Assembly: GCA_963676835.2 (NCBI GenBank)
Contig: CAXXFF010000002.1
Span: forward strand, 32,001-96,000
DNA from: Marispirochaeta sp.
GTDB lineage: Bacteria; Spirochaetota; Spirochaetia; JC444; Marispirochaetaceae
Direction: 5' to 3'
DNA: 64,000 bases
In this document: positions 45,739 through 63,171 of the stretch, piece after piece
Numbering within the stretch: the first letter of the stretch is position 1
Layout of the letters: every line of letters starts with the position of its first letter
The notes under the pieces: model-generated
Seen by the model: the letters and a program-made list of their open reading frames with translations, nothing else
Database searches by the model: none
Told to the model about the DNA's origin: nothing
Program-made: the position numbers and the translations under genes

Positions 45739-46968
45739 ATGAACATTACCACCGTAACAGACGGCATATACCGCTTATCCGCAAACGTTGAAAACATTCT
45801 CTTTGAAGGTCTCTGGCCCATACCCAACGGGGTTTCCATGAACTCCTTTGTTGTAAAGGGTGAAAAAACCGCGATTATCGACGGGGTCTGCGGCTGGGAT
45901 GGTGTACCGGAGACCCTTATCGATCAGTTTAGCCAGGCAGGAATTAATCCGGATACCATTGATTACGTGATCATCAACCATATGGAGCCGGACCACTCCG
46001 GTTGGCTGGAAGCTTTCCGGAAGATCCGGCCGGACTTTACCGTGGTAACCAGCAAAAAGGCGGTGCCTCTGCTGGAAGCCTTTTTCGGCATAGAAAACGA
46101 GGTAATCGAAGTCGGCGACGGCGACAGTCTGGATCTTGGTGCCGGCCGGGTTCTGCAGTTTGCGGAAATTCCCAATGTACACTGGCCGGAGACCATCGCC
46201 ACCTTTGATTCTCTTTCCGGCACCCTCTTCCCCTGCGATGCCTTCGGGAGCTTCGGTTCAATTAATGACGCCCCTTATGATGATCAGCTGAGCGAAGATG
46301 ATCTGGCCTTTTTCGAGAATGAATCGGTCCGGTACTACTCAAACATTGTAGCGGCCTTCTCCATGCCGGTAAAAAAAGCAATTGCGAAATGTGCGGACCT
46401 GCCCATTAAAATAGTGGCTCCCGGCCATGGTATAGTCTGGAGGAAAAATCCACAGAAAATTATCGACGACTATATACGCTATGCAGACTATCAGAAGGGT
46501 CCGGCAAAAAACGAAGTAACCGTAATTTGGGGCTCCATGTACGGTATGACCGAAAAAGGAGTTGCCCCGGCGGTGGAAACCCTCCGCGCTGAAGGGCTTA
46601 CCGTTCACGTTCACCAGGTTCCGGAAAGCTCATGGGGGGATATACTCACCAGTGTATGGACCTCATCGGCAGTTGTTCTTGCCATGCCCACCTACGAGTA
46701 CAAGATGTTCCCTCCCATGGCGTCAGTTCTGGAAGAACTGGGCAAGAAGAAGGTACATAACCGCATAGCCTTCCGCTTCGGCTCATACGGCTGGTCCGGA
46801 GGAGCCCAAAAGGAGCTGGATGCAATCATGGAACGCTACAAAACAGGCTGGGAGTTTCTGGAGCCGGTGGAATTCAAGGGCAGTCCCGCAGAAGCAGACA
46901 TAGACAGGATACAGACTCAATGCCGCAGGGTAGCTGCTGCGGTAAACGAAGCAGTACTTACCGGCTAA
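45739..46968 (+). CDS. fprA: Class A flavodiiron protein
   Basis: HMEPDH, HWPET, CDAFG, PGHG; flavodoxin SMYGMT and GSYGWSG. Confidence 0.95.
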   Translation: MNITTVTDGIYRLSANVENILFEGLWPIPNGVSMNSFVVKGEKTAIIDGVCGWDGVPETLIDQFSQAGINPDTIDYVIINHMEPDHSGWLEAFRKIRPDFTVVTSKKAVPLLEAFFGIENEVIEVGDGDSLDLGAGRVLQFAEIPNVHWPETIATFDSLSGTLFPCDAFGSFGSINDAPYDDQLSEDDLAFFENESVRYYSNIVAAFSMPVKKAIAKCADLPIKIVAPGHGIVWRKNPQKIIDDYIRYADYQKGPAKNEVTVIWGSMYGMTEKGVAPAVETLRAEGLTVHVHQVPESSWGDILTSVWTSSAVVLAMPTYEYKMFPPMASVLEELGKKKVHNRIAFRFGSYGWSGGAQKELDAIMERYKTGWEFLEPVEFKGSPAEADIDRIQTQCRRVAAAVNEAVLTG

Positions 46969-47000
46969 AACCTCGAAGTAATAAGTTTCATACTGAAGAT

Positions 47001-47025
47001 CGCCCCTTTTTCGGGGCGTTTTTTT
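47001..47025 (+). terminator. Intrinsic terminator
   Basis: CGCCCC/GGGGCG followed by T7. Confidence 0.8.
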
Positions 47026-47109
47026 ATACTTTCGCACAAAGTTAATTGACATTAACGCTTAATGCGCATAAACTTTGTTCATCCTAATTTACTTTGGAGG
47101 ACCAACCAT

Positions 47110-47358
47110 ATGGTTCCAACATCTGCCACCATGGCACAGGTAAAAGCAGGCCGTTGCTGTAGAATCCACGGTCTTGGTAAAGGCCGCAGCTTCCGGGCAC
47201 GCATGGTAGCTCTGGGAGTTCGCCCGGGTGCACATTTAAAGGTTGTCAGCGGCTGTGGAGACGGCCCGCGTATTGTTGAACTGGGCAGACAGCGAATCAT
47301 GATCGGCGCGGAGATGCTCCACCACATATATATCAATGAGGAAGGAATGGAGAGATGA
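47110..47358 (+). CDS. feoA: FeoA family protein
   Basis: RMVALGVRPG...GP...RIMIG; ATG follows GGAGG; upstream of feoB. Confidence 0.88.
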   Translation: MVPTSATMAQVKAGRCCRIHGLGKGRSFRARMVALGVRPGAHLKVVSGCGDGPRIVELGRQRIMIGAEMLHHIYINEEGMER

Positions 47359-47603
47359 GTAAAGCAGAAACAGTAAGCCTGGCCGGAATGAAACCCGGAG
47401 AAGGCGCAGTAATTACAGGCTACCGGGCAGGCGGCAAAGAGTACCGCAGGAAGCTGCTGTCCTTCGGTCTGACCGCCGGGACCAGAATAACCCTGGTAAA
47501 AAAGGCACCCATGGGGGACCCCGTAGAAATCAGTGTTCGGGGCTACTCTCTGTCACTTCGTAAATCAGAGGCTGAAGTACTTGAGCTGAGGAGCAAAATA
47601 TGA
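47355..47603 (+). CDS. feoA: FeoA family protein
   Basis: KLLSFGLTAG, APMGDP, LSLRKSEA. Confidence 0.93.
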   Translation: MSKAETVSLAGMKPGEGAVITGYRAGGKEYRRKLLSFGLTAGTRITLVKKAPMGDPVEISVRGYSLSLRKSEAEVLELRSKI

Positions 47604-49927
47604 GTATCGCAGCACCGGCACGAACAATGACCATTGCCCTGGCGGGAAATCCCAACTGCGGAAAAACCACGATCTTCAACGCCCTTACCGGTTCTTCGGC
47701 AAAAACAGGCAACTGGCCCGGAGTAACCGTTGAGCGCCGGGAAGGAATAATGCATTCAGCTAATGGAGAGACTGCAGTAATCGACCTGCCGGGAATCTAC
47801 AGCCTCTCCGCTGAATCCGAAGACGAAAGAGTTGCCAGGGACTTCCTGATCAGCGGAAGTGTAGATGCGGTGGTCTGCATTGCAGATGCGGCCAATCTTG
47901 AGCGCAATCTCTATCTAACCTCTACCATCATGGAAAGCGGAGTTCCTGTAATACTGGCTCTGAACATGATGGACGCCGCAGAAAAAGCCGGACTCCGGAT
48001 CGATATCAAGAAGCTTTCTACAGAACTGGGATGTCCGGTGCTGCCCCTGAGTGCGGTCAAACCCGACAGCCTGAGAAGCTTCAGAAAAGAGCTTGAAAAA
48101 GAGCTTAGCGGGAACCTTAAACCTGCTTCCGTCAAAATTACCTATGCAGCTGAAATTGAAAAGGCTGCCGGCGAGTGGGAATCGGCACTTGCCGCTGATG
48201 CACTTAGCCTGGGGCTGAATAGCCGCTTTCTTGCCCTGAGCATTCTTGAGGAAGATCCTTTTATTATAGAGAAGTTCGGCGATAACATCGGTAAGGGAAC
48301 CATAGAAAGCATAATAACGAAGATCAGTGATATTTCCGGAACTACCGTTGATATGCTCATTGCCGATAACCGTTACAGCTGGATCACCGATGTCTGTACC
48401 AGAAGTATCAGAGAAACCCGGGAGAGCAGTGAAGCAAAGACCTCAACCGGAGGGCTGGACAGCATACTGCTGCACCGCTTCTTTGGTATACCGATTTTCC
48501 TCATGGTTATGTACCTTGTTTTCTGGGTAACCATGGCAATAGGCGGATCGTTCATCGACTTTTTTGATATTCTTTTCGGCGGCATTTTTGTTGATGGCCT
48601 GGGAAGTCTCATGGCAAATGTGGGCAGCCCGGAATGGCTTATTGCCATAATCGCCGGTGGTATCGGCGGCGGTATCCAGACGGTTTCCACCTTTATACCC
48701 ATTATATTCTTCATGTTTGCCATGCTTGCAATCCTCGAAGATTCAGGCTACATGGCCAGGGCAGCCTTTGTCATGGACAGGGCGATGCGGGCCATCGGGC
48801 TGCCGGGGAAAGCCTTTGTTCCCATGCTGGTGGGCTTCGGCTGTACTGTACCCGCAATTATGGCAACCCGCACCCTGGAATCAAAGCGGGACCGCTTTAT
48901 GACCATATTTATGTCACCCTTTATGTCCTGTGGTGCCCGGCTTCCGGTTTATGCACTTTTTACCGCTGCATTTTTCGGCTCCAGTGCAGGACTGGTGGTC
49001 TTTTCCATCTACCTGGCAGGTGTAGTTCTAGCCATTCTTACCGGGCTGCTGCTGAAACACACCCTCTTTAAGGGCAGCCACAGCCCCTTCGTAATGGAAC
49101 TTCCCTCCTACCACGCACCCCGGTTCGGCCATATTGTGACCAGTGCATGGCGTAGACTCAAGGTGTATATGTTCAGAGCCGGAAAGGTAATAGTCCTGGT
49201 AGTGCTGGTGCTTTCTGTTCTCAACTCATGGGGAACCGACGGCAGTTTCGGCAACGAGGATTCTGAAGAGTCCGTACTTTCGGTAGTAGGTAAAACCATC
49301 ACGCCTCTGTTTGGCCCCATGGGAATCGAAAAAGAAAACTGGCCCGCAACAGTGAGTCTCTTTACCGGACTATTTGCCAAGGAAGCGGTGGTTGGGACCC
49401 TGAACGCCCTCTATTCCCAGGAAGCTGTTGCTTCTTCGGCTGAAGATGAAGAAGCAGAGCCTGAAGCATCATGGAGCCTTGTTCCGGTTATCAGTGAATC
49501 CCTTGCAAGCATTGGAGAAAACCTTGCCGGAGTACTCGGCAGCCTGCTGGATCCCCTGGGAATCGGCCTTATATCGGGAGATGAAGCGGCCACCGCAGAA
49601 GAACTTGAAACAGAAGACAGTGTCTTCACAGGACTGAGAAACAATTTCAGCCCTGTAAGCTCATATGCTTATCTGCTGTTTATCCTCATCTACTTCCCCT
49701 GTGTCGCGGCACTGGGTGCGGCTGTGCAGGAAACAGGAAGAGGTTATGGAACCATACTGGTCACCTACCTCACCCTGCTTGCCTGGATAACATCCACCCT
49801 GGTGTTTCAGATTTTCCAGGGACACAACCTGCTCTGGATAATTGTTCCCCTTCTCCTTCTGGGCGGAATCTTTGCCAGTTTCGCATTCATGGGACGGGGA
49901 CGAGAAAAAATTCAATATCCCGGTTAA
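47600..49927 (+). CDS. feoB: Ferrous iron transporter B
   Basis: GNPNCGKT, GNWPGVTVE, DLPG, NMMD, GFGCTVPA, PFMSCGARL, YFPC. Confidence 0.97.
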   Translation: MSIAAPARTMTIALAGNPNCGKTTIFNALTGSSAKTGNWPGVTVERREGIMHSANGETAVIDLPGIYSLSAESEDERVARDFLISGSVDAVVCIADAANLERNLYLTSTIMESGVPVILALNMMDAAEKAGLRIDIKKLSTELGCPVLPLSAVKPDSLRSFRKELEKELSGNLKPASVKITYAAEIEKAAGEWESALAADALSLGLNSRFLALSILEEDPFIIEKFGDNIGKGTIESIITKISDISGTTVDMLIADNRYSWITDVCTRSIRETRESSEAKTSTGGLDSILLHRFFGIPIFLMVMYLVFWVTMAIGGSFIDFFDILFGGIFVDGLGSLMANVGSPEWLIAIIAGGIGGGIQTVSTFIPIIFFMFAMLAILEDSGYMARAAFVMDRAMRAIGLPGKAFVPMLVGFGCTVPAIMATRTLESKRDRFMTIFMSPFMSCGARLPVYALFTAAFFGSSAGLVVFSIYLAGVVLAILTGLLLKHTLFKGSHSPFVMELPSYHAPRFGHIVTSAWRRLKVYMFRAGKVIVLVVLVLSVLNSWGTDGSFGNEDSEESVLSVVGKTITPLFGPMGIEKENWPATVSLFTGLFAKEAVVGTLNALYSQEAVASSAEDEEAEPEASWSLVPVISESLASIGENLAGVLGSLLDPLGIGLISGDEAATAEELETEDSVFTGLRNNFSPVSSYAYLLFILIYFPCVAALGAAVQETGRGYGTILVTYLTLLAWITSTLVFQIFQGHNLLWIIVPLLLLGGIFASFAFMGRGREKIQYPG

Positions 49928-49949
49928 TGCCGGATTTGTAACTTCCCTG

Positions 49950-49987
49950 CTCCGCTCCCGGTTCCCTTGTCCGGGAGCGGAGTTTTT
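49950..49987 (+). terminator. Intrinsic terminator
   Basis: CTCCGCTCCCGG/CCGGGAGCGGAG followed by TTTTT. Confidence 0.85.
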
Positions 49988-50029
49988 ATTGGATTAAAGA
50001 TGCAGAATGCTGTACAATCAGCTCCGGCT

Positions 50030-50728
50030 ATGAGTAAAACCGTTGAAACCGAGATGCAGGAGCTGCAGAAACGCTTTCCCGCAGCCCTCGATTATCTTAC
50101 CGAAATATTTCTTCTCCACCGCGAATTCGGTCAGGTGACCAACAGCAAGCTGGCTCAGGCCCTGAGAGTCTCCAAACCTGCAGTAACCCAGGCGGTAAGC
50201 AGACTGAAAAAGCATAAACTGGCAGAACAGGATCTGTACGGCACCATCCGCCTGACCCCAACGGGAAGAATTTATGCTTCCACTGTTTTAAAGCGCCATT
50301 ACCTTATTGAACACCTGCTTATACAGAAACTGGACTACCCCTGGCATAAATCCGACGAGGAAGCACAGCGCCTGCAGGGGGCAATCTCAGAAGAGTTTAC
50401 CCAACACCTTTATGAAGCATTCGATCATCCCCAAACCTGCCCCCACGGGAATCCCTTCCCCGGATCAGACAGAGAGAAAGAACTGGTTACCGCACCCCGC
50501 CTGGCTGATGCACCGGAAAACAGTCCCCTGAAGCTGATACGTATAACAGAAATAGGCGAAGCAGTAGACGGGCTGCTGGAGTTCTGCCACCGGCATAATC
50601 TTCATCCAGGGCGGATTATTCTTGTTATAAAAAAGGAGGAGAATACCATCTATACCGGTTGCTGCGACAATCAGGAAATCCCCATTCCCATGGAGATTGC
50701 CCGGCATCTGTGCTACGCTCTGGAATAA
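50030..50728 (+). CDS. DtxR/MntR family regulator with atypical metal ligands
   Basis: DYLTEI, VSKPAVT, HYLIE, CPHGNP, C-terminal FeoA-like domain. Confidence 0.88.
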   Translation: MSKTVETEMQELQKRFPAALDYLTEIFLLHREFGQVTNSKLAQALRVSKPAVTQAVSRLKKHKLAEQDLYGTIRLTPTGRIYASTVLKRHYLIEHLLIQKLDYPWHKSDEEAQRLQGAISEEFTQHLYEAFDHPQTCPHGNPFPGSDREKELVTAPRLADAPENSPLKLIRITEIGEAVDGLLEFCHRHNLHPGRIILVIKKEENTIYTGCCDNQEIPIPMEIARHLCYALE

Positions 50729-51345
50729 TGAGAAGAATAACCTGTAGATTTTTTTTTCTGCTTTTCTGTTTTCATATGCCCCTGATGGCTCACCCGCATA
50801 TGTTTATCGATACTCAGCTTGATATTACCCTCGAAGCTGGAAATTTGAAGAGTATTGATATAACCTGGCGGTTCGACCCTCTGTTCACTGCCTCCATTAA
50901 AGGTGATTTTGATGAAAACAGGGATGGCAGATTTGACGCCCGGGAGATCGCACTTATAAGGGAGTACGCGTTTACCAATCTGAAGAACTACGATTACTTC
51001 ACTTTCGTAAACATCGAAGGAAAAACCCATGTGCCTGAAGAAATAGACGCGTTCACCGCCAGAATGGAACAGGAAACCCTGGTCTATGAGTTCACCACCT
51101 CATTCAATCTTCCCCTGGAAAAAGAGGATTTTGCAGTGGCGATCTATGATGACACCTTCTGGTGCGATATAACCTATACAGATACTAATCCAGTCCATAT
51201 TACCGGGAATCCTGGAGCGGATTGGAAACTGGTGGAAAACCGGGACATGGCCATCCAGTATGATAATGCAACAACTATAGACCGGAACGGTAAAACCTAC
51301 TCAGGTACCGCATATCCACAGCAGATTGTGGTAACCATTCCCTGA
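50728..51345 (+). CDS. DUF1007 family periplasmic protein
   Basis: Signal peptide then AHPHMFID, W.FD, YD.TF; TAATG coupling. Confidence 0.85.
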   Translation: MRRITCRFFFLLFCFHMPLMAHPHMFIDTQLDITLEAGNLKSIDITWRFDPLFTASIKGDFDENRDGRFDAREIALIREYAFTNLKNYDYFTFVNIEGKTHVPEEIDAFTARMEQETLVYEFTTSFNLPLEKEDFAVAIYDDTFWCDITYTDTNPVHITGNPGADWKLVENRDMAIQYDNATTIDRNGKTYSGTAYPQQIVVTIP

Positions 51346-51346
51346 G

Positions 51347-52234
51347 ATGAAAAGAATAATCCTCTTTACACTGCTCATGCTGCTGACACAGACAGTAATC
51401 TTTTCCCAGGGCAATCCTTTTCTGGGGTCTCCCGGGGATTCCGACAGAACGGAAAAAGAGGATCCCCCCGGGGAAGTGAAACAATCCGCCTGGCTGCAGA
51501 AATCCGCATCCATACAGAAAGATCTGCAGAAACAAATAGCCGCTGCCCTGAAGGGAGAAAACGGATTATCAGGAATGCTAATATTCCTGGGTCTCTCTTT
51601 TCTCTACGGATTACTCCATGCCCTGGGGCCGGGACATAGAAAAACCGTCCTTTTCAGCTACTTTATCGGAGAAAACGCCCGGCCGATCACAGGAATCATG
51701 ACGGGACTACTCCTGGCTGTGCTGCATGCAGGCAGTGCCGTCCTGCTTGTAGGCGGCACTGCCTGGTTTACCACCCGTTCGCTGCTGCTCTCGGTAAATC
51801 AGGCGGAAGCATGGCTCTATCCGGTAACCTACGGAATCATACTGATCCTGGGCCTCTGGATGATTATCCATGGAATTATTGATTTCCGACACCATAGTCA
51901 CTCTCACGGCTCCTCTTCAAAGGGCCTGACAGGAATGCTCCTCTCCGGGCTGGTTCCCTGTCCGGGAGCCTCGGCAATAATCATCTTTTCCCTTGCTTCA
52001 GGCACGGTTCTGCCGGGGATTCTGGCGGTACTGGCCATGTCTCTGGGAATGGGAACTCTTCTTGCGGGAATAGGCCTGGCAGCTGTGCTGTTCCGGGAAA
52101 AAATAGGCAGGCTCGTAAAAACCCGGAGAGACGGCAGCCAGGGCACAGCTCTGCTGGAATTGAGCCTGCATACAGCGGGCGGGCTTTTTCTTGCAGCTTT
52201 CGGCGCCGTTTTTCTATTGCCAGGCCTTATCTAA
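51347..52234 (+). CDS. RcnA/NiCoT-like nickel/cobalt transporter
   Basis: HALGPGHRK, His-rich loop HHSHSH, GLVPCPGA, MSLG. Confidence 0.9.
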   Translation: MKRIILFTLLMLLTQTVIFSQGNPFLGSPGDSDRTEKEDPPGEVKQSAWLQKSASIQKDLQKQIAAALKGENGLSGMLIFLGLSFLYGLLHALGPGHRKTVLFSYFIGENARPITGIMTGLLLAVLHAGSAVLLVGGTAWFTTRSLLLSVNQAEAWLYPVTYGIILILGLWMIIHGIIDFRHHSHSHGSSSKGLTGMLLSGLVPCPGASAIIIFSLASGTVLPGILAVLAMSLGMGTLLAGIGLAAVLFREKIGRLVKTRRDGSQGTALLELSLHTAGGLFLAAFGAVFLLPGLI

Positions 52235-52373: not shown

Positions 52374-54200
52374 ATGCGATTCATTCCCGAACAGTGCAGA
52401 ATTATCTATACAAAAAGGGGCGAGAAAAGCCCCTCCGTTCTGGCCGGCCGCTGGCCCCTGGAAAATGATGAAATAAGCCTTAAACTGGAGGAGGAACGCA
52501 ACGAAGACAATCCTGCCTACCGTTTTTCCTTCTCTGTGAAAGCTGAGCTTTTCGTCGAGGAAATTGTTCTGAACGGAAGACTCGATGGAACCCTGCGGCC
52601 GGTTTCGGCGCTTACCGAAGGATTTCAGTCCCGCAGCACTACGGGCATCGCCACCCCTGATATCCGGCAGAAGTCCCTGCAGAAACAGAGTATCCCCGGA
52701 CACAGTTCTCCCTGGGGCGACAGCGCCGGAAAAGGCGGGGAGGCCGTATCCGAAAGCCTGCTGCTGCTGGATGACGGCCTGAATGAAAGCCTGCTGATAT
52801 CTCAGGAGGCACCTTTTTCGGAATTTGTCTTCTTCGAAGCAGGGATTCAGCAGCAGCCGGTAAAACTCAATGCCCACTGGCATCTTTCCATAGCTCTGGA
52901 GCTGGGAAGCACCTATACAACAGGCTGGGTATCAACCTCATCAGGAACCGGAGAAAAACTGCTTATAGAATGGAGCCGCCGGTCCTCAAAGGCATCTGGA
53001 ATAAACTGTGAAGGATTCACTACCCCTCCGAGAATCTGGACCAGCTGCATGGATAATTCCCGGGAAGCAGGTCCGGACTACATAGAGAAAAATATCAGCA
53101 CTGCCGCCGGCAGTAAGCTGCCTCTCGATGTTTTTCTTATAGACGCAGGATGGGAGGAATTTCCCGGCGACTGGCACCGACCCTCCCCTGCCTTCGAAGG
53201 CAGGCTGCCGCAGCTGGCCCGGTCTGCAGCAGCGGCAGGATTCCGCCCGGGAATCAGCATTGCACCCTTTATTGCAGCCAGGAACTCTGAAGCATTTAAA
53301 CAGCCGGGCTGGATACTCTGTAACGTGAAAGGCAAACCGGTGCCTATAGCCGCAGGGCTTTTAGGACGAAAACTTTTTACCCTGGATCTCAGCAACCCGG
53401 AAGTGATCAACTACATAAGCTCAAGCATCCGTACCATTACCCGGGACTGGGGCTTTCAGACGATAAAACTGGATATGCTCTTTGCGGGAACCCTCCCCGG
53501 TATGCACAGCGATCAGACAAAAGGGATTTACCGCCTGTTTACCGAAGCCATGCAAATTATCCGGGAAGCTGCCGGAAAAGAAACTCTGCTTATCGGGAGC
53601 GGCATGCCCCTAACCGGCGGAGCAGGCACCATTGATATCGCGGGAATCTCCTGCGGCGATGCCTCTTTGTGGGATAAAAATGTCTGCCTTATTCCAAGAA
53701 AAACCAACGGACTTCCGGCACTTCAGTCGTCTGTCCGCAGCACTATTATCCGAAGCTTTTACAACAGACAGTTCTGGCTCAACGATCCGGGACTGCTGCT
53801 TACAGAAGAGCCGGAACGGGATGTTCTGCTTACAGCTGCACTGGTCACAGGAGGAGCACTGAGTTTCGGCGATAACCTGGCAGAAATGAGTGAAGAATCC
53901 CTTGAAAAGATGAAGAGTATCCTTGAGAAGGCTCAAATTTATGCTCAGGGAAGGACTGCTCCCTTAAGGATTTTCGGAGACAGTGAGGTCTTTGCATTGT
54001 ATAACGATACCGGGCTTATACTGCTGTTCAATCTGAACAGTGAAGAAGTAACCATCGAGTTAAGACTGGCCGGGTACAGGGATATTCTATCCCCCTACAC
54101 CGCCTATAAGCCCTTTACAGGAGCCGAAGATCACCCGCTGGAGGCTCCGCGGAACATGACTATTCCCGCTGTGGGCTACAAGGAAATCAGGCTCTCCTGA
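52374..54200 (+). CDS. GH36/GH27-clan alpha-galactosidase-like glycoside hydrolase
   Basis: IDAGW, LDLSNPEV, KLDML, WLNDPG. ATG 52374 follows AGGAG. Confidence 0.8.
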   Translation: MRFIPEQCRIIYTKRGEKSPSVLAGRWPLENDEISLKLEEERNEDNPAYRFSFSVKAELFVEEIVLNGRLDGTLRPVSALTEGFQSRSTTGIATPDIRQKSLQKQSIPGHSSPWGDSAGKGGEAVSESLLLLDDGLNESLLISQEAPFSEFVFFEAGIQQQPVKLNAHWHLSIALELGSTYTTGWVSTSSGTGEKLLIEWSRRSSKASGINCEGFTTPPRIWTSCMDNSREAGPDYIEKNISTAAGSKLPLDVFLIDAGWEEFPGDWHRPSPAFEGRLPQLARSAAAAGFRPGISIAPFIAARNSEAFKQPGWILCNVKGKPVPIAAGLLGRKLFTLDLSNPEVINYISSSIRTITRDWGFQTIKLDMLFAGTLPGMHSDQTKGIYRLFTEAMQIIREAAGKETLLIGSGMPLTGGAGTIDIAGISCGDASLWDKNVCLIPRKTNGLPALQSSVRSTIIRSFYNRQFWLNDPGLLLTEEPERDVLLTAALVTGGALSFGDNLAEMSEESLEKMKSILEKAQIYAQGRTAPLRIFGDSEVFALYNDTGLILLFNLNSEEVTIELRLAGYRDILSPYTAYKPFTGAEDHPLEAPRNMTIPAVGYKEIRLS

Positions 54201-56053
54201 TTCCGGCGGATAAGGACATCTTCATAGGGAGCAAAACGCCAGCCCTGGGTATAGGAGTCGGGCTTTCTGTCGGGACTGATTATGGTCCCGATGCCGGCAG
54301 TTTCCAGATGCCGCCGCAGAACCTGTATGCGCTTGTAGATGGACTGATAGCGCCGGCACATGCTGGGCTTGCAGCCGCCGTCCCCGCAGGAATCCTTCCC
54401 GTCCCCGATTAAAGCGCTTATATCGCCGCAGAGCAGTACTCCTTCCGGAGCAGAAAGAAACCCGCTAAGGATTCTCATATTTGCCTCGGAAAGACCGGAC
54501 TCAAGACGGCGGCCTTCAAAGTAGACCTCATCATCCTTTACCAGAAGATTCTTCGGCCGCAGGGAATGGAATATCAGGGCTCCCGCAAACAACAGAACCA
54601 ACAGCAGCCTGTCCAGAACAGCAAACACCATGGAACCCGACAAAACCGGCCCGGGAAATGCAACAAGCATTACCATGTAGAACCAGATAAGCCAGAAAAT
54701 GCTTCCGCTTAAAAGCCGGCGCAGCCTTTCCGGATTGCGGTCGCCTTCAAGCGCAGGAAAACGCAGAAGCTGGAGAATAGTAAAGACGGCCATATTCTTC
54801 AGAGCAAATGAAAAGGCAGCCAGCTCAGTAATTCCGGGGATGAGCAGAAAGGGCAGGAATACTATTCCCGCCAGGGAGAGGGCAAATACAATCTTAAGAG
54901 AAGTTCCCCGGGATACAGTAAGTGACCCGAGCATGAAAAGTGCTTCAAAAACCGCCCAGGGAAGGAGGATTCCGGAAGCAGCTGCATTCATCCGGCTGAG
55001 TTCTGAAATTATCAGAAAACTTCCTGCAAAGGCGGCAAAAAAGGGCATTCCCCTTTGAAAAACGGTAAACCAGGAGTTCCCCCGGATACGGGTCTGTTCC
55101 GCCGCCTGAGTACTATCCAGTTTAGCCGGAATTAATCCTGCAAAAAAGAGACTCTTTTTTTCCGTTGCAGTAACAATCCCCTCTTCGAGCTCAAGCAACC
55201 AGCCCTCCGATGTGATGTCCCGCTTGTTAGCCGGAGGCACCAGCCTGCCTATTCCCAGGTTCTCAAGTTTCCCCGAAAGGGCACTTATATTTCTATAGAT
55301 AACCGCATAGGCAGGGCATTGGGACGCCTTGCACTCTCCACCGGGGACACAATGCTCCGCTCCCGGAGTAAGATAAGCAAAATCCCTGCAGAAAACCTTT
55401 CTGTCCCGGCTCTGAATACAACCTTTCAGTATTGCCTGCTGCAGATCAGAAAAGAGATCACTGACATCCTCATCCCGGAAGAGTATCCTCTCCCCGGCAC
55501 TGAGCACATCGTTTTCGGAACCTCCCCGGAGAATCACCAGCAGCAGAAGTGCGGGAATATAACTGAGACTCTCATACACCCCGATAAACACTGCATCCAA
55601 CTCCTGTACCGCCATTCCTACCGTAATAAATTGATGCAGCTGCAGGATTACCAGCAGGGCGGAATAGGAACCGAGAACCAGGATAATAAGGTTCAGGCCC
55701 CGGGCCAGTCGGTTGAAATCCCTTCGTCTGGCAAAACGGTACACAAGGCTGTAGCTTACCGCCAGGAGCGGCCCGGGATAGAGTTTCATCAGAAAACCGA
55801 GAAAGGCAGCATCGATATAGATACCGCCTGCAATGGCAATAGCGGAAACCGCCAGCCCCAGTACTGAAAGCAGTGTAAAGGCATAGCGGCTGCTGCTGCG
55901 CCGGAAAACAAGAAGAACTCCCCCTCCCTGCAGCAGGGCCATCAGCCCCCCGGCATAAACAGAATACTCTCCCGCTGCCGCAAAGCCTGTAACCAGGGCC
56001 GGCAGGGAGGAATAGACGGCCAGAGCAAAAACAAACAGACGGAAGGGAATCAT
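54176..56053 (-). CDS. Internally duplicated membrane protein: 2 x (about 6 TM + Cys4-containing OmpR-like winged helix)
   Basis: Two homologous soluble domains with C-x12/13-C-x4/5-CKxSxCxxYxxIY...LExxGIG...GW, each following a hydrophobic block. Confidence 0.8.
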   Translation of the reverse strand: MIPFRLFVFALAVYSSLPALVTGFAAAGEYSVYAGGLMALLQGGGVLLVFRRSSSRYAFTLLSVLGLAVSAIAIAGGIYIDAAFLGFLMKLYPGPLLAVSYSLVYRFARRRDFNRLARGLNLIILVLGSYSALLVILQLHQFITVGMAVQELDAVFIGVYESLSYIPALLLLVILRGGSENDVLSAGERILFRDEDVSDLFSDLQQAILKGCIQSRDRKVFCRDFAYLTPGAEHCVPGGECKASQCPAYAVIYRNISALSGKLENLGIGRLVPPANKRDITSEGWLLELEEGIVTATEKKSLFFAGLIPAKLDSTQAAEQTRIRGNSWFTVFQRGMPFFAAFAGSFLIISELSRMNAAASGILLPWAVFEALFMLGSLTVSRGTSLKIVFALSLAGIVFLPFLLIPGITELAAFSFALKNMAVFTILQLLRFPALEGDRNPERLRRLLSGSIFWLIWFYMVMLVAFPGPVLSGSMVFAVLDRLLLVLLFAGALIFHSLRPKNLLVKDDEVYFEGRRLESGLSEANMRILSGFLSAPEGVLLCGDISALIGDGKDSCGDGGCKPSMCRRYQSIYKRIQVLRRHLETAGIGTIISPDRKPDSYTQGWRFAPYEDVLIRRNQESLISL

Positions 56054-56740
56054 CTAGGCAGCCTTTTCCTTAAATGTCAGTCGAGCCATAAGAATAGGGG
56101 TAATAAAGAAAACGGCAGAGAAAATACCGAAGCGGGGATAGGTGAGAGCGATGATGACCGCCGCAAAGGCAGCGGTGAGGGCATCGGCATAAAAGGGTTT
56201 AAAGACCTGGGAAAGATAGTGGAGAAAGTCCCTCCCCTCCTCCAGCCGGTAAAAGAGGGCATTGAGAACACAGGAAATAAGAAACAGAAAGGGAGCGGCG
56301 CCGATGGCCGGCAGAATATACATCCCCCCGGTCAGATTTATCAAAAGACCATAGACTTTATCAACAGCATAGAGACCAACAATAAAATGGCTGACATTAA
56401 AAAGGGTAAGCCGGAAATGGGTATTAAACAGGTGACGAAAGCCCCCCTCTTCAATGCGGAAGCTCAATAACAGACTTGCAGCAATACAGACCAGAGCGGT
56501 GACAGGCCCGCCGGAAAGATAGGCGGCAAAAAAGACCGCTTCCAGGGTGGAAATATAGATATTTCCGCGCCGGTGGTGTACCGAGAAAGACTCATTCAGA
56601 ATGCCCAGAAGCGACCAGACCAGCACAGCCGCAGGGTCGATTGTGAATGAAGAACCGGAGAGCAGCAGAAAAGTTGAGGCTAAAGCTCCAAGGGAGAGAA
56701 CTATCAGAAAAACTGCAGCACTTACCGGATAATCGGACAT
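56054..56740 (-). CDS. Stand-alone polytopic membrane protein resembling the membrane sensor region of HD-GYP/GGDEF proteins
   Basis: About 7 hydrophobic segments; ESFSV...ISTLEAVFFAAYLSGGP...LFN pattern; GAGG SD. Confidence 0.7.
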   Translation of the reverse strand: MSDYPVSAAVFLIVLSLGALASTFLLLSGSSFTIDPAAVLVWSLLGILNESFSVHHRRGNIYISTLEAVFFAAYLSGGPVTALVCIAASLLLSFRIEEGGFRHLFNTHFRLTLFNVSHFIVGLYAVDKVYGLLINLTGGMYILPAIGAAPFLFLISCVLNALFYRLEEGRDFLHYLSQVFKPFYADALTAAFAAVIIALTYPRFGIFSAVFFITPILMARLTFKEKAA

Positions 56741-56751
56741 TTTAAAACCTC

Positions 56752-56793
56752 AGAAACATGTTTCTCCACAAAATCGTACGGAAGCATGTTCTT
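56752..56793. promoter_or_regulatory. Palindromic operator-like pair in the divergent intergenic region
   Basis: Perfect AGAAACATGTTTCT (56752-56765) and variant GGAAGCATGTTCTT (56780-56793). Confidence 0.5.
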
Positions 56794-56876
56794 ACTGCCT
56801 GACGGCAGCTGTTTTTTTCTGCTGGTATGATACGTTTCCTGAATAGAGAAGTCAATTGATCTGAAAACCAGTTAAA

Positions 56877-57019
56877 AGAGGTATAAAAATGAAAAACAGA
56901 CTATTCGGCCTTGCTGTTCTAACAGCAGTTCTGCTTGCACTTCTGTCCTGCGAGAGCGCAGGCAGCGGCGGAAACTCTTCACCGGAACCAGGGCCCTTGA
57001 AATTCAGCGACGCAGGAGC
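56877..57019 (+). repeat. 5' direct repeat copy 1 (RBS, signal peptide, linker); partner at 58231-58373
   Basis: Identical AGAGGTATAAAAATGAAAAACAGACTA; 56946-57000 vs 58300-58354 differ at 1 of 55 nt. Confidence 0.9.
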
Positions 57020-58121
57020 TGGATTCAACGGCAACCGACAGGGCCCTTCATGCTCCACTGCGGATATAGATAATGACGGTGACATTGATATCTTTTTCTC
57101 AGGTTACCCCGCAACCGCCCTTTACCGGAATAAAGGAAACAACACATTCGAATCCGGAGGATTCCTGGAGTTCACCAATACAGACTATTCAGCATCGGTT
57201 TTTGCAGATGTTGACTGCGACGGGGATTTTGACCTCATCCGAATGGGAAGAACAGGATCCAGTTCTACCGCCTATACTGTGGTTGAACTAAACAACGGCA
57301 GTGGTAGTTTTACCTCTGAGACTGCAGGTCTTACCGCTCTCCGCCAGGGGGATATTGCTGCCGGGGATGTTAATAATGACGGGTATCCGGATATATTAAT
57401 TCAGGGTATGGACAGTTCTGGAAACTTTATGACGTGTCTTTATCTTAATAATGGGGATCCCGACGACGATGGATGGGACTTCTTCAGCGAATCGACATTC
57501 ACCTTTATAGAACTTGCCAGAGGTTCGGTTGAATTCGGACATCTCAATGACGATGACTACCTTGATCTGTTAATCACCGGCCTTGACAGCAGCAGCACGA
57601 AACAAACCATGATCTACCTCAACGACGGTGACAGCGGAGATGACGGGTGGGACGACACCTTTTCAGAACTCCCGGGACATCCGCTCCCCGGCATGTACAA
57701 TTGCGAAAGCGCAATTGTGGATATAGACAACGACCAGGACAACGACATTATCCTGGCGGGAGATACAGGTCAGGGAGAGTGCCTGATCTTTACCAATGAC
57801 GGAAACGCCGGATTTACTGATGGTCAGACTCTAACTGGGGTATCAGCCGCCTTCCTTGTAACCGGCGATCCGGATGATGACGGCGATCCCGACCTTATTG
57901 TGGGAGGTTGGTACGGTCAGGATGGATATACAGCCCGAACCTTCTTCTATCGCAACAACGAAGGAACCTTCGAAGAAGAGGAGAATATAGAACTTACCGA
58001 TATGCAGGACGGTGCGGGCAGTTTTTTTGATTCCGACAACGACGGAGATCTGGATCTGGCCATCTGCGGCGGCAGTGGTGCAACTGCCTATGGCTTTCTT
58101 TACCTGAACGGCCGGTTCTAA
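56889..58121 (+). CDS. FG-GAP/VCBS-repeat beta-propeller lipoprotein
   Basis: Lipobox LLSC; seven DxDxDG-type repeats (ADIDNDGDID, GDVNNDGYPD, FDSDNDGDLD). Confidence 0.92.
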   Translation: MKNRLFGLAVLTAVLLALLSCESAGSGGNSSPEPGPLKFSDAGAGFNGNRQGPSCSTADIDNDGDIDIFFSGYPATALYRNKGNNTFESGGFLEFTNTDYSASVFADVDCDGDFDLIRMGRTGSSSTAYTVVELNNGSGSFTSETAGLTALRQGDIAAGDVNNDGYPDILIQGMDSSGNFMTCLYLNNGDPDDDGWDFFSESTFTFIELARGSVEFGHLNDDDYLDLLITGLDSSSTKQTMIYLNDGDSGDDGWDDTFSELPGHPLPGMYNCESAIVDIDNDQDNDIILAGDTGQGECLIFTNDGNAGFTDGQTLTGVSAAFLVTGDPDDDGDPDLIVGGWYGQDGYTARTFFYRNNEGTFEEEENIELTDMQDGAGSFFDSDNDGDLDLAICGGSGATAYGFLYLNGRF

Positions 58122-58194
58122 GCTCACAACCTTCCTCCATCGGGAAGTTAAGACCTTGCAGACCCTTCCGGGGACACCCCCGGAGGGGTTGTTT
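58097..58194 (+). repeat. 3' direct repeat copy 1 (last codons plus two hairpins/terminator); partner at 59457-59553
   Basis: 58 identical nt (58097-58154 vs 59457-59514) followed by a near-identical GACCCTTCCGGG...CCCGGAGGGGTT hairpin. Confidence 0.92.
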
Positions 58195-58230
58195 ATATCC
58201 AAATCTGAACAGAAGCCAAGTTTTTAAGAG

Positions 58231-58373
58231 AGAGGTATAAAAATGAAAAACAGACTAATTAACCTTGCAGTAATTACAGTAGTGCTGCTGGCACTCCTTT
58301 CCTGCGAGAGCGCAGGCAGCGGCGGAAGCTCTTCACCGGAACCAGGGCCCTTGACATTCAGCGATGCGGGAGC
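58231..58373 (+). repeat. 5' direct repeat copy 2
   Basis: Matches 56877-57019. Confidence 0.9.
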
Positions 58374-59481
58374 AAACCTGACAGGGGTGCGCTATAACCC
58401 CACCTGCAGCATCGCCGATGTTAACAACGACGGGCATACAGATCTACTTATTTCTGGACACTCAAGCAGCGGTGATGTGACAAAACTCTACCTCAATGAC
58501 GGCACTGGCACATTTTCCCATGCCAATGCCGGAATGGCGAATCTGCGCTACACAATGAGCGGCTTTGCCGACATGGACAATGATGGTGATATGGATTTAT
58601 GCCTGGCAGGCAACAATAGCAGCGGGAACCCCAGGGCCTACCTCTACATAAACGCCGGGGACGGTACCTTCAGCGAATCAGCTCAGACTGTTTACGGGGC
58701 TTCGGATGGATCACTTGCCTTCGCAGATGTAGACAATGATGGAAATATTGACCTGCTGGTATGCGGTAAGCATGATATTGATGGGGATGACAATATTGAA
58801 ATCAGTTCCATTCTCTATATAAACCAGGGAGATAATAATTCAGATGGCCAATGGGATGGGTACCAGCCATCCACAGAGAGCCTTACCGGGGTAAGAAACG
58901 GAACCTGCAGCTTTGCTGATATTAATAATGATGGCTACCCTGAAATTCTCATCAGTGGAAAAGCCGATGCATCACCGGACACCTTTACCGGGCTCTATAT
59001 AAACAATGGAGACCGTACTTATGCAGAATCCGGGACAGTTTTTCCCCAGCTGGGATACGGTCAAGGAACAGCTTTTGCCGATGTCAACGGCGATGGAGAC
59101 CTGGAAATACTCCTGGCCTATGAGGATAGTGAACTGAAAACCGAGGTATGGGGACTGAACCTGTCGGGGACATACGAAAAGGAATCAGATTTTGCGGAAC
59201 CCGCTTCAGGGAGAATTATTTCCGGCGACCCCGATTCTGACGGAGATATAGATATTATTATCTACGATTATAGTTCCGACGAAACAGCAGGGACCAATTT
59301 CTATATCAACGACGGATCGGGCCTTTTCAGCCGCAAGAACATGGGCCTGTCCAGCATAGAGTCATGCGGGGAGGGACACTTCTTCGATGCAGATGGAGAC
59401 AGTGATCTGGACCTCATTATCTGCGGCAAGGACAGCACCGGCAGTGGAAATACAACTCTTTACCTGAACGGCCGGTTCTAA
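58243..59481 (+). CDS. FG-GAP/VCBS-repeat beta-propeller lipoprotein (tandem paralog)
   Basis: Same LLSCESAGSGG start and LYLNGRF end; seven DxDxDG-type repeats. Confidence 0.92.
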   Translation: MKNRLINLAVITVVLLALLSCESAGSGGSSSPEPGPLTFSDAGANLTGVRYNPTCSIADVNNDGHTDLLISGHSSSGDVTKLYLNDGTGTFSHANAGMANLRYTMSGFADMDNDGDMDLCLAGNNSSGNPRAYLYINAGDGTFSESAQTVYGASDGSLAFADVDNDGNIDLLVCGKHDIDGDDNIEISSILYINQGDNNSDGQWDGYQPSTESLTGVRNGTCSFADINNDGYPEILISGKADASPDTFTGLYINNGDRTYAESGTVFPQLGYGQGTAFADVNGDGDLEILLAYEDSELKTEVWGLNLSGTYEKESDFAEPASGRIISGDPDSDGDIDIIIYDYSSDETAGTNFYINDGSGLFSRKNMGLSSIESCGEGHFFDADGDSDLDLIICGKDSTGSGNTTLYLNGRF

Positions 59482-59553
59482 GCTCACAACCTTCCTCCAT
59501 CGGGAAGTTAAGACTATTCAGACCCTTCCGGGACACCCCCGGAGGGGTTGTTT
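59457..59553 (+). repeat. 3' direct repeat copy 2, including a probable terminator
   Basis: Matches 58097-58194; hairpin followed by TGTTTTT. Confidence 0.92.
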
Positions 59554-59610
59554 TTCTCTTCTCGTTCCCTTCTTTCTCCTCTTTTTATCCTTTTTATTCT
59601 TTAGTTCCCT

Positions 59611-62535
59611 TTATTCTCCCTGTTCCCCATCCTTTCCAGCTTCAGCTTTCCCCCCGATACGTCCGTACATCCAGTTCATACCCAAAAGCACTGCACCTGC
59701 CAGAATAAATACCACCGCCCGTTCCAGGGTATCCGATCTGGCCATATCGAGAATAATCAGACGCCCCAGGCTGAAAAGGATAAGCAGAAAGGAGCTCAGG
59801 CGGAAGCTGTTCTCCCGCAGAATCATACTCATGGTAAAGAGGGCAAAGCTCTCGAGGATAAGCAGAGAGGTAAGCACAGGACCGGAAAAACTGAGAAAGA
59901 GGAAGAATCCTATACCGATAAAATAGGGATAGAGCAGCGCCGCAGAACGCCTCTCTGTAAGAAGAAGAGCAAGCTTGCCGGAATACTCATCCCCGGCAAC
60001 CTTCAACCCGTAGACCCCGCCCAGGTAGGCCAGTCCCAGAAAGACTGACCCCAGGGCGGTCCACCAGGATAGATCAAAAACCTCAACCCGGAATGATCCG
60101 GACTCCAGCCCGGAAAAGGGGAGAAAGAAAAGCCCGATCCAGAAAAAGATGAGGGAGAATGAGTAGTAGCTCCGCATATACCGGGGACCGAAACGGCCGG
60201 AGAGAAGCAGAATTATAGCTGCCGCAACACAGATAAGCCCGGTCCAGACCAGACCTGCCTCAAGCCCGACAAAGCCTGCCCCCGCAAGGGCTGCCAGAAA
60301 AAGCACCCAGTTTCTGCTGCCCGAAGCCTCCGTTCCCCGCTTTCGCCCCCAGACGAGCATGGAGGCAAGCACCAGCACATCCTGAACAATACGCTGCCAG
60401 CCGTGAATCTTCTGATTCAGAAGCGGCTCGGAGCCCATTAAGGCAAACAGAGCTGCCACCAGGGAGACCCCGGTGCCGCAGATAACAAAACTCCGGGCAA
60501 TGTCCGACCGTAAACGGGGAATATAGGTTGCGACATAGAGCAGTATGGAAACAACAGCCCACAGGCTTACTGCAAGCCAGACCTCATGCTTGCCGGCAAA
60601 ACTCAGAATGAGAGTACAGGTATTCAATACCCCGAAAAAAACAACAGGAAGAGCCCGTACCTGCCTGCGGATAAGGGGCAGGCTGAGAACAAGCACCTGA
60701 ACAAGCAGCATGAGAGTCAGCAGGTTGAGACTGAAGTCCCCGGGGAAAATGGCCTGAAGAGGAAGAGTAACCAGATAGGTGATTCCGTGAAGCAGAATAA
60801 CCAGCCCCAGGAGGAGCCTGGAAAGGAGCTTTTCGCGGTTGAGAAAAGAAACTAAAGCCGCTCCCGCGGTAAGGGGAAGGACCATACCGCCGCCCAGGGA
60901 AAACCACTCGGGAAAATCAAAGAAAGCACCGGTAAGGATATAAAGGGAAACCATTCCCAGTGCGGCTGCCGCCATGAGACTTCTGGATGCAATATCCGCC
61001 TTTTTATAGAAAAACTGCAGCAGCACCAGGGTTCCGCCGCCCATGGCATACAGAAAAATAAGCCGGTGAACAGCCTGGATAGTACCGGCATCATCCCCAT
61101 AGGAGATAGACCCCGCCTCTATAATGGTTAGAACCAGAACTGCAAGAGAGGCCGCTGCGGCAGCTATGGAGAAAACAATCCGCAGCACCTTCTCCCGGCG
61201 GACATCAAAGGCAGCTAAAAGCGCTACCAACCCGGCAATTTCCACCGCCGCATAGAGATCGAGATTGAATTTGCTGAATCCGAACACCGCAGCCACCGCC
61301 AGGGCAAGCCCGGCTATTGAATCAAGCCTGCGTATAGCCTCCGGGAGACGCCGGGTAAAACGGCCGGAAAGGTAGGCCCCAGCTCCCAGCAGAAGAAACA
61401 GAAAGGAGATCCATTTGTATTCCGCTCCCAGGGCGGTTGTTCCCGCACCAAGATAGAGCCAGGCGGCAATACGGGCGGCATTGGCAAAACGGTCGTGCTT
61501 ATAACCCCGTACATAGGGAGCTGCCATTCCGGGAAGCAGCCCTCCCGCAAGTGCCCCGAACAGGGGCAGGTCGATGCCGGTAAAGGAGAAAAGAGCATTT
61601 GGATCGCCATGAGAGACCCAGAGGACGGTGAAGACAAAAAATCCACCCTGGGCCAGAAACTGATGAAGCCCCCAGGGACGCCGCAGAAGAGGGACGGAGC
61701 TGAAAGCAGTAACCACCGCAGCGGCGGTGAGGGATGCAGCAGAAGGAGGAGCGGATGCCAGAGCTGCAAGGCTGATCAGCACATGAAAGGAAGAAAAGAG
61801 CTGGGCATGTACCCGCAGGGCAAAAAAGAGGTTGGCCCCGATACCCAGAAAAAGCAGGGCGTATCCCTGGGGTGCGGACTGTACCCACTTCAGCCAGGGA
61901 ATGGATGATGCTCCCAGAGAGGCAAAGAGAAACAGGGCCCCCGCAGCAGACTGAAACCAGCCGGAGGCGTCAAGCAGCCCTTTTTTTCTGTTCAGGTAGA
62001 TACTAACAAACCAGAAGAGCAGGGAAATTACCATGAGCATGAGAAAGCGGGCAACCTGCCCCATCTTCAAGGCGGTTAATACTGCCAGAAAACTGAAGCC
62101 GATAACCAGGGCAAACACGCCGAGAATACCCGTCCAGCGGTCGGAAAAACGGTCTTCCAGATTCTTTAGCAGCCGTGGGATCTTCCCCGGACCGGTGCTT
62201 TCAGCAGGTTTCCTGCTTTCTTTACCCTGAGAACCGGCTTCGTCTGCCCGGGAAGCTGCAGATGTTGATGAAGGTTGTACCGAAGAAAGGGCAGCAGAAT
62301 TATCCGGGATATCCTCCTGCTTCTCTACAGATTCTGCAGATTCTGCAGCAGAAAAATCACTGTTTTTCCATTTTTTTTCTACCGTCTCAAGGTCTTCAAT
62401 CCGGCCATGGAGCCGGTGAACCAGAGTCTGGAGATCCTTGACCTTTCTGCTTAAGCCTATGGTGCGGAAGCCCAGTATACTTCCTGTAAGAAAGATGAGT
62501 ATTATACCGCCGAAAAAAACTATCTCAAAATCCAT
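59611..62535 (-). CDS. DUF2339-like large polytopic membrane protein
   Basis: N-terminal TM, coiled coil and linker, LEDRFSDRWTGILG, more than 20 TMs, C-terminal GRLIILDM...RAVVFILAGAVLL. Start moved to ATG 62535. Confidence 0.8.
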   Translation of the reverse strand: MDFEIVFFGGIILIFLTGSILGFRTIGLSRKVKDLQTLVHRLHGRIEDLETVEKKWKNSDFSAAESAESVEKQEDIPDNSAALSSVQPSSTSAASRADEAGSQGKESRKPAESTGPGKIPRLLKNLEDRFSDRWTGILGVFALVIGFSFLAVLTALKMGQVARFLMLMVISLLFWFVSIYLNRKKGLLDASGWFQSAAGALFLFASLGASSIPWLKWVQSAPQGYALLFLGIGANLFFALRVHAQLFSSFHVLISLAALASAPPSAASLTAAAVVTAFSSVPLLRRPWGLHQFLAQGGFFVFTVLWVSHGDPNALFSFTGIDLPLFGALAGGLLPGMAAPYVRGYKHDRFANAARIAAWLYLGAGTTALGAEYKWISFLFLLLGAGAYLSGRFTRRLPEAIRRLDSIAGLALAVAAVFGFSKFNLDLYAAVEIAGLVALLAAFDVRREKVLRIVFSIAAAAASLAVLVLTIIEAGSISYGDDAGTIQAVHRLIFLYAMGGGTLVLLQFFYKKADIASRSLMAAAALGMVSLYILTGAFFDFPEWFSLGGGMVLPLTAGAALVSFLNREKLLSRLLLGLVILLHGITYLVTLPLQAIFPGDFSLNLLTLMLLVQVLVLSLPLIRRQVRALPVVFFGVLNTCTLILSFAGKHEVWLAVSLWAVVSILLYVATYIPRLRSDIARSFVICGTGVSLVAALFALMGSEPLLNQKIHGWQRIVQDVLVLASMLVWGRKRGTEASGSRNWVLFLAALAGAGFVGLEAGLVWTGLICVAAAIILLLSGRFGPRYMRSYYSFSLIFFWIGLFFLPFSGLESGSFRVEVFDLSWWTALGSVFLGLAYLGGVYGLKVAGDEYSGKLALLLTERRSAALLYPYFIGIGFFLFLSFSGPVLTSLLILESFALFTMSMILRENSFRLSSFLLILFSLGRLIILDMARSDTLERAVVFILAGAVLLGMNWMYGRIGGKAEAGKDGEQGE

Positions 62536-62655
62536 ATTTTCTCTTCCTGTTCCGCTAGTGTATAGCCCGGGAGAAAATCTGTCGAGGGCGGAAAAAGCGT
62601 GGTATGTGATATAATGGTTGGGGTAATGAAAGATGTAATGAAAACAGGTGAGAGG

Positions 62656-63171
62656 ATGAAGATTCGAATCAGCTACATGCAAACCCCTGCGGGGGAACTC
62701 ATACTCGGCTCCACCGATTCCGCTCTCTGCCTCTGCGACTGGCGCTACCGTAAAATGCGCACTGCCATAGACCAGCGCATACAGAAACATCTCAAGGGAG
62801 TCTTTGAGGAGGGATCTTCAGATATTATTACGGAAGCTGAAAGGCAGCTGGGGGAATATTTCTCCGGAGACAGGAAAATCTTCGATCTGCCCCTGATATT
62901 TGCCGGTACGGATTTTCAGAAACGGGTATGGCAGTATCTGCAGACCATACCCTACGGCGAAACACGGAGCTACCTGGACCTGGCCGAAGCCCTGGGCGAC
63001 CGCAACAGCGTGCGGGCAGCAGCCTCAGCCAACGGCGCAAACGCCCTTTCCATAATAGTACCCTGTCACCGGGTTATCGGCTCCGACGGCACCATGGTGG
63101 GCTACGCCGGTGGACTGTCTGCCAAGCGCAAACTGCTTGAGCTGGAGCAACCCCAGCTCAAGCTGCTCTGA
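62656..63171 (+). CDS. ogt: Methylated-DNA-protein-cysteine methyltransferase (start could be 62626, 62638 or 62656)
   Basis: GTDFQKRVW, IPYGETRSY, VPCHRVIG, GYAGG. Confidence 0.95.
   Translation: MKIRISYMQTPAGELILGSTDSALCLCDWRYRKMRTAIDQRIQKHLKGVFEEGSSDIITEAERQLGEYFSGDRKIFDLPLIFAGTDFQKRVWQYLQTIPYGETRSYLDLAEALGDRNSVRAAASANGANALSIIVPCHRVIGSDGTMVGYAGGLSAKRKLLELEQPQLKLL

Follow-up and report, generated by a model that had tools for sequence, protein, structure and literature searches.

ToxR, CadC and TcpP are membrane-anchored regulators whose OmpR-like heads bind near position -50 upstream of surface-structure genes, and ToxR uses both tandem and inverted sites (PMC10629549, PMC5430869). In the co-component systems ToxRS, VtrAC and TcpPH, two abutting genes encode a membrane regulator and its obligately linked partner, a periplasmic lipocalin (Kinch et al., 10.1101/2022.04.08.487670), while multi-pass transmembrane transcription regulators also exist and are reported to be enriched in Spirochaetota (Demey et al., PMC10269533). 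The present analysis concerns a 64,000-nt stretch of DNA, hereafter the window, from Marispirochaeta sp. (assembly GCA_963676835.2, contig CAXXFF010000002.1, positions 32,001-96,000 of the forward strand; genome G000), and within it a 625-aa tandem membrane protein, P0001, encoded at 54176..56053 on the minus strand next to its partner P0002. Sequence comparisons make it probable that P0001 is a membrane-tethered activator of a surface-lipoprotein regulon, which would work with a MASE9-like partner and repress its own operon.

Compared with ToxR and CadC, whose heads lie N-terminal to one transmembrane (TM) segment followed by a periplasmic sensor, P0001 has a different layout: its heads are C-terminal to six TM segments, its loops are short, and it lacks a periplasmic domain. 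It further differs in that four Cys sit in the transactivation loop, that one chain carries two distinct heads and that Trans_reg_C does not match. The P0001-P0002 pair shares the adjacency and obligate linkage of co-component systems, whereas P0002 is a multi-pass intramembrane protein and not lipocalin-like. The heads resemble the OmpR/PhoB DNA-binding domain (PF00486) in a profile that runs through the strands, helices and wing, but the family has no receiver domain, stays below every Pfam threshold, contains a Cys insert and, in its single-unit members, is associated with palindromes and not with direct repeats. MASE9 (PF20972) is described as fused to HD-GYP or GGDEF-EAL and is proposed to bind a ligand inside the membrane (Galperin and Chou, 10.1101/2021.11.05.467447), whereas P0002 stands alone and the Pfam model does not match it.

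Architecture of the tandem regulator

Comparison of domains within the open reading frame (ORF) resolves P0001 into [6TM-D1]-[6TM-D2]. On the minus strand, TM half 1 (aa 1-176; 55526..56053) precedes D1 (aa 181-296; 55166..55513), and TM half 2 (aa ~336-496; 54566..55048) precedes D2 (aa 501-616; 54206..54553); both heads are predicted 4-Cys OmpR-like winged-helix domains, with putative recognition helices at Y249-E264 and Y569-E584. D1 and D2 (aa ~181-296 and ~501-616) are 29% identical across 115 aa (pairwise E=3e-15), and averaged hydropathy gives ~6 hydrophobic segments in each half, in agreement with an initial annotation made from the letters of the window, which had read this 625-aa ORF as a duplicated unit of about six TM segments plus a soluble domain. 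That annotation had also called the TM halves strongly diverged, and they barely match each other (profile P=0.035). Both match the TM domain of single-unit relatives: half 1 is homologous to it at a profile probability of 97%, and half 2, delimited by hydropathy, matches it weakly (P=0.002).

Basic residues alternate by loop, with 16 Lys and Arg in the four loops placed inside against 2 in the six placed outside, the loop limits having been drawn by eye. From this excess, D1 and D2 are predicted to lie in the cytoplasm and not in the periplasm. The HRD and EPRWIES motifs, which single-unit members keep on the outer face, are missing from the tandem TM halves, so sensing may have moved to P0002.

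Fold of the heads

Profile evidence supports the assignment of D1 and D2 as OmpR-like winged helices. The family profile matched OmpR-type DNA-binding domains with 32% probability when 14 rows were compared with 6, rising to 72% with 167 against 36 rows and to 86% without the Cys-loop columns. The match is collinear across 86 columns, covering the strands, helices 1-3 and the wing, and its score of 32.5 exceeds those of 100 block-shuffles, which reached no more than 21.1. When 444 family profiles from the window genome were compared, that of the OmpR family came first, matching through its C-terminal domain, but its narrow lead (P 0.0041 vs 0.0072) tempers this result. The nearest Atlas clusters are named OmpR/PhoB-type (0.85), which serves as a lead only. 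The motifs that the initial annotation had aligned by eye with the OmpR regulator of the same window (27349-28032) are present there and in register in the profile alignment.

Mapped onto this alignment, the four Cys run from the beginning of helix 2, where the first one lies, to a last one just ahead of helix 3. The Cys site would thus occupy the transactivation loop, which leads into the recognition helix and contacts RNA polymerase in ToxR (PMC10629549).

The cysteine site

The Cys sites were located where the initial annotation had placed them, one in each copy. In D1 the spacing is C222-x12-C235-x5-C241-x4-C246 (codons 55390-55316; feature 55316..55390, minus strand), and in D2 it is C542-x13-C556-x4-C561-x4-C566 (codons 54430-54356; feature 54356..54430, minus strand). 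Across the family, counts were made on 167 of 175 domain segments, those of at least 100 aa. The first and last Cys are kept in 167/167 and the inner two vary in position, with four or more Cys in 164/167 domains and three only in 3/167; elsewhere Cys has a frequency of 0.46%. Single-unit members mostly read C-xn-C-x2-C-x9-C and tandem members C-xn-C-x3-5-C-x4-C, and spacers or loop inserts range from 5 to 55 aa. Of the motif first proposed, the outer two Cys are therefore invariant family-wide, while the exact CKxSxC spacing belongs to the tandem clade.

A constant number of Cys whose inner pair moves, with spacers of 5-55 aa, is the behaviour of a four-ligand metal site, and on balance structural zinc is moderately favoured over an Fe-S cluster or a thiol switch. 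Family searches through Pfam and NCBIfam gave no match to the Fe-S regulators (WhiB-like, SoxR, FNR), and the Cys spacing is not that of those regulators; SoxR, for instance, is described with C-x2-C-x-C-x5-C. With the regulator and its regulon unchanged, the Cys could still act as the sensor, through an oxygen- or nitric oxide-labile Fe-S cluster or a thiol switch gating DNA binding or polymerase contact, in line with the metal or redox switch that the initial annotation had proposed. The presence of four Cys in 164/167 domains, their position in a loop with the role described for ToxR (PMC10629549) and the resemblance of the single-unit pattern to the WhiB-like Fe-S pattern would suit such a sensor, but the inner ligands have been relocated wholesale in the tandem clade, the spacers vary widely, three domains have three Cys only, and the listed neighbours include no recurrent gene for Fe-S or redox functions. 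The conserved polar outer-face TM motifs and the dedicated partner suggest instead a signal through the membrane, and a sensing role for the Cys is judged rather unlikely.

Family, distribution and phylogeny

A HMMER scan of 1.84 billion representatives (50%-identity clusters) with a 14-row domain profile returned 161 clusters at E of at most 0.001, 151 of them at 1e-10, which indicates a closed family. Among the best 150 of the 161, the typical member is a single-unit protein of about 300-340 aa, and 19 of the proteins examined have the two-domain, tandem form. The single-unit proteins were recovered by the full HMMER scan alone and had escaped word-indexed searches aimed at relatives of smaller or greater length. 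Searches of Pfam, NCBIfam and PDB sequences with the family gave no significant match, bearing out the remark that the architecture was not recognized. Since the census of multi-pass regulators by Demey et al. relies on known DNA-binding domains, it would probably have missed this family. No description of the family or its motifs was found in the literature listings searched, with subscription journals mostly outside coverage. The family would represent transcription factors invisible to Pfam and NCBIfam, with predicted operators, target genes and partner.

Members are present in 31/401 genomes of the class and 5/301 of a sample of the phylum; the 31 comprise 8 tandem genomes (one with a broken gene), 1 with a remnant only and 22 with singles only. 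The family was found in spirochaetes; tandem relatives occur in six named records, each of them a spirochaete assembly. No member was found in the sampled genomes of large genome families with small genomes (e.g. 0/49, 0/37), so the medical reach looks small, and no relative was found on plasmids or viral contigs.

Phylogenetic analysis, by a quick method only, separated a D1 clade (support 80) from a D2 clade (support 99, including five fragments), and the two clades are similar in internal branching order, which fits one old duplication. The initial annotation had proposed a single-chain pre-dimerized factor. A single chain with two heads stands, but a simple pre-dimer does not: since D1 and D2 fall in separate clades and have different putative recognition helices, P0001 is better described as a pseudo-heterodimer derived from the commoner single-unit family. 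The window genome also encodes one single-unit paralogue, P0009 (L001:10010-10933; G000:C2:444009-444932).

In P0083 and P0087, the 4-Cys domain lies behind a different sensor-like region with one or two TM segments, a large soluble part and no Pfam match, an arrangement expected of an output domain. P0117, a glycosidase joined to the family domain, was set aside as a likely chimera, and its domain is identical to that of P0115.

The partner protein P0002

P0002 (56054..56740, minus strand) is a 228-aa stand-alone multi-pass membrane protein whose stop codon abuts the P0001 start. Its relatives lie directly upstream of the tandem gene in 13/13 loci with upstream DNA (one duplicate locus was dropped, and two loci had no upstream DNA). 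Its profile matches strongly in 8/381 genomes, exactly the tandem bearers, besides one stop-ridden chance match. P0002 is hydrophobic throughout, with 7-8 hydrophobic stretches where MASE9 would have about 8 TM segments; E50, S51, R110, N115 and H118 are invariant in its family, and conserved polar residues lie inside predicted TM segments. In the Atlas it falls near clusters with 21-32% MASE9-bearing members (score 0.95, 216/256 features shared). P0002 is a probable intramembrane sensor or gate for P0001, and if so, MASE9-like domains would have an output that is not an enzyme, and their ligand would become easier to approach.

P0002 is not homologous to either TM half of P0001. Stand-alone MASE9-like Atlas clusters of 220-243 aa are common in Acidobacteriota.

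Conserved motifs and promoter positions

Three motifs were found by eye in 25 upstream regions. Motif a, AACWYGTTTCCGTACG, is asymmetric, 16 bp long and represented by 16 sites. The initial annotation had suggested 56741-56888 as a target region, and a conserved operator-like motif lies within it: a candidate double operator at 56755..56790 pairs a minus-strand match to motif a (56775-56790, 15/16), across a 4-nt spacer, with an inverted plus-strand match (56755-56770, 12/16). It stands between the start codon of the P0002-P0001 operon and its putative sigma-70-like promoter (TTGACT-17-TATCAT, 56827..56855, minus strand), which was assigned by consensus match only, and it is also upstream of a candidate extended -10-like element (TGG-TATGAT, 56823..56831, plus strand) that faces the lipoprotein genes and overlaps the opposite -10. 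An inverted second copy after a 4-nt spacer occurs at 5/16 sites including that of the window (11-14/16 matches; chance 6e-4 for 11). The interval 54000-60000 of the window gave no Rfam match.

A matrix built from 7 sites in other genomes was run on G000. Its top five sites are all intergenic and the next 16 are coding; three of the five precede lipoproteins, one is the window site and one precedes an operon for a secreted TPR protein and a lipoprotein; the four sites other than that of the window are at C2:1117215, C3:891601, C4:22949 and C1:430400. A random site would fall in a comparable position with a chance of 0.85%. The exact 16-mer occurs in 5/8 tandem genomes against 2/393 others, where both sites are inside ORFs, and a reversed control gave 2 hits; the co-occurrence is partly circular because five of the counted genomes are those in which motif a had originally been noticed, and the genomes are kin, both of which lessen the weight of these counts. 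Variants are found in two further genomes (G301 and G076), and motif a is absent from 22/22 single-only genomes and from G002, a genome of the same genus with a reduced cassette. At two metagenome tandem loci outside the training set, motif a again lies with the partner gene on one side and a divergent lipoprotein gene on the other. A looser pattern gave six extra matches, in ORFs or before other genes, which were treated as chance. One copy of an element of ~150 bp, MITE-like (miniature inverted-repeat transposable element) with terminal inverted repeats of 16-17 bp (L160, G000:C2:1117229-1117385), lies immediately 5' of a motif a site; BLAST matches the element 23 times in G000 and many times in other genomes of the genus.

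Single-unit clades are associated with palindromes. Motif b, AGTCCATATGGACT, goes with one such clade, and its three best-scoring sites in G000, set apart by a wide gap in score, each lie before a lipoprotein gene. TAnnnT starts 30-31 nt after motif b in 10/11 sites against a background of 4.8%, an offset chosen after looking and in a set that includes two orthologous pairs. Matches in three genomes (G319, G112, G401) are inside ORFs, and as the reversed control pattern matched 5 genomes, genome counts for motif b are at chance and site context alone counts. P0009 follows two lipoprotein genes of the FGE-sulfatase fold that have motif b in front of them, and two further G000 sites before lipoproteins are at C2:900859 and C2:1714636. 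Motif c has a CACGTG core and goes with a third helix variant; three loci have it 37-38 bp before the -10, and in one more the distance is 42 bp.

The start of the -10 hexamer corresponds to position -12, and a centre near -50 is an activator position. For palindromes b and c the centre lies 37-38 bp before the hexamer, and hence near -50. For motif a, the CGTACG core is 38 bp before TAnnnT in 5 rows. P0001 could alternatively be a repressor at these sites, released by a signal. The window site inside the leader of the regulator itself and the variable spacing of motif a to the -10 speak for this, but the two palindromes do not overlap the core promoter and occupy the position of an activator, and heads of the ToxR family bind near -51 (PMC10629549); repression as the general mode is considered unlikely.

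Three variants of the recognition helix pair with the three motifs. This pairing bears on whether another regulator or a sigma factor reads the motifs, or cassette ancestry maintains them, with the family being a linked passenger or making protein contacts. The link from motif to family is one that we infer, G207 has the protein without the motif, and some targets of motif a are homologous lipoproteins, all of which would fit another reader. Motif a also precedes unrelated genes (fn3, FG-GAP, FGE-sulfatase, TPR), however, and its absence from single-only genomes and G002, together with the pairing of helix variants and motifs, makes such an explanation quite unlikely.

Lipoprotein genes and a natural deletion

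Two FG-GAP repeat lipoprotein genes, proposed as targets, follow the window site on the plus strand at 56889..58121 and 58243..59481, the second encoding a paralogue 40% identical to the first. A lipoprotein gene adjoins the family cassette in 17/37 cases against 313/3515 genes in G000, with lipoproteins called by our own lipobox pattern, which weakens the comparison; the 37 cassettes include one broken gene merged from two rows, omit three loci without a row and are kin, not independent. Neighbouring lipoproteins have adhesin-like domains (FG-GAP, Ig-like, cadherin-like, LRR, FGE-sulfatase fold, Listeria-Bacteroides repeats, RCC1), with a Pfam match in 24/30 hand-picked neighbours. A regulon of the proposed kind would offer a clue to how adhesin-like surface lipoproteins are turned on in non-model spirochaetes.

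Genome G002 is syntenic with G000 on both sides of the cassette. Its regulator is reduced to the last 137 codons, the partner and lipoprotein genes are gone, and there is no motif a site, including at the empty target site; one distal target was lost with its motif a site, and another was kept without it. Such clean loss of a target gene, the patchy spread (31/401 genomes) and the varied lipoprotein cargo would also be expected if the motifs served mobile lipoprotein genes as sites of recombination or cassette capture and the Cys domain were not a transcription factor. The fixed distance to the -10 hexamer, the lack of a motif at the empty G002 site, the absence of a recombinase among the neighbours listed and the absence of plasmid or viral-contig matches render this explanation highly improbable.

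Proposed mechanism

As an activator, each half of P0001 would be a 6-TM module with both ends inside (N-in/C-in), carrying a cytoplasmic OmpR-like winged helix in which four Cys, most likely around structural zinc, tie the beginning of helix 2 to the loop that leads into the recognition helix. Single-unit relatives would bind, as homodimers, palindromes of 14 bp centred near -50 at lipoprotein promoters, whereas internal duplication would have produced one chain with two different heads that reads the asymmetric 16-bp motif a; two P0001 chains could occupy an inverted double site, as in the window. MASE9-like P0002 would sense or gate within the membrane. P0001 would in turn activate genes for adhesin-like surface lipoproteins, both in cis and in trans, and repress its own operon from the same double site. 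The family would thereby illustrate natural symmetry breaking, from palindromes with homodimers to an asymmetric site with a fused pair.

Several results weigh against this proposal. HMMER did not link the heads to OmpR, with a Trans_reg_C match in 1/14 domains (E=0.23) and 0/111 members, and the PF00486 gathering score was not reached, although there is a remote profile match of moderate strength (72-86%). The deep family hidden Markov model picks no OmpR genes among the top genome matches listed, and sequence search found no PDB relative of the family. For the partner, PF20972 matches 0/10 members and nothing in G000 at E of at most 1. The distance from motif a to the -10 varies, being 35 nt in 5 rows and also 37, 39, 46 and 50, and the nearer core of the window site lies 48 bp from TATGAT and not 38 bp, one helical turn further out. 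G207, with an intact tandem, has neither motif a nor lipoprotein neighbours.

A broader claim appears doubtful: that these proteins form an undescribed class of six-pass activators, with a metal site in the polymerase-contacting loop, in which homodimers on palindromes gave way to a one-chain heterodimer, sensing moved to a MASE9-like partner, and the Cys site provides a second redox or metal input gating the lipoprotein regulon.

Other features of the loci

The regions behind the two FG-GAP lipoprotein genes (58122-58242 and 59482-59560) are near-identical and contain the same GC-rich hairpin, and the first 45 residues of both proteins are almost identical; the shared 3' regions and N-termini suggest a recent duplication or conversion. 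At 45739-52234 the window contains a metal-uptake cluster with a DtxR-like repressor, DUF1007 and NicO genes, and what we take to be a flavodiiron-like protein and feoA-feoA-feoB. A link of P0001 to these neighbouring feo/DtxR metal genes was rejected, as the arrangement is not kept at other family loci. At 59611-62790, an ORF of 1059 aa encodes a large multi-pass membrane protein that has no Pfam match and is conserved in G002.

The intact tandem cassette of G207 (L076, G207:C35) lies amid transporter and GntR-like genes and may serve a different regulon. Two further loci (L016:9175-16772 and L062:6366-16007) each carry two divergent partner-plus-tandem cassettes around mscS and lipoprotein genes, the second tandem gene being broken into three ORFs in L016 and intact in L062.

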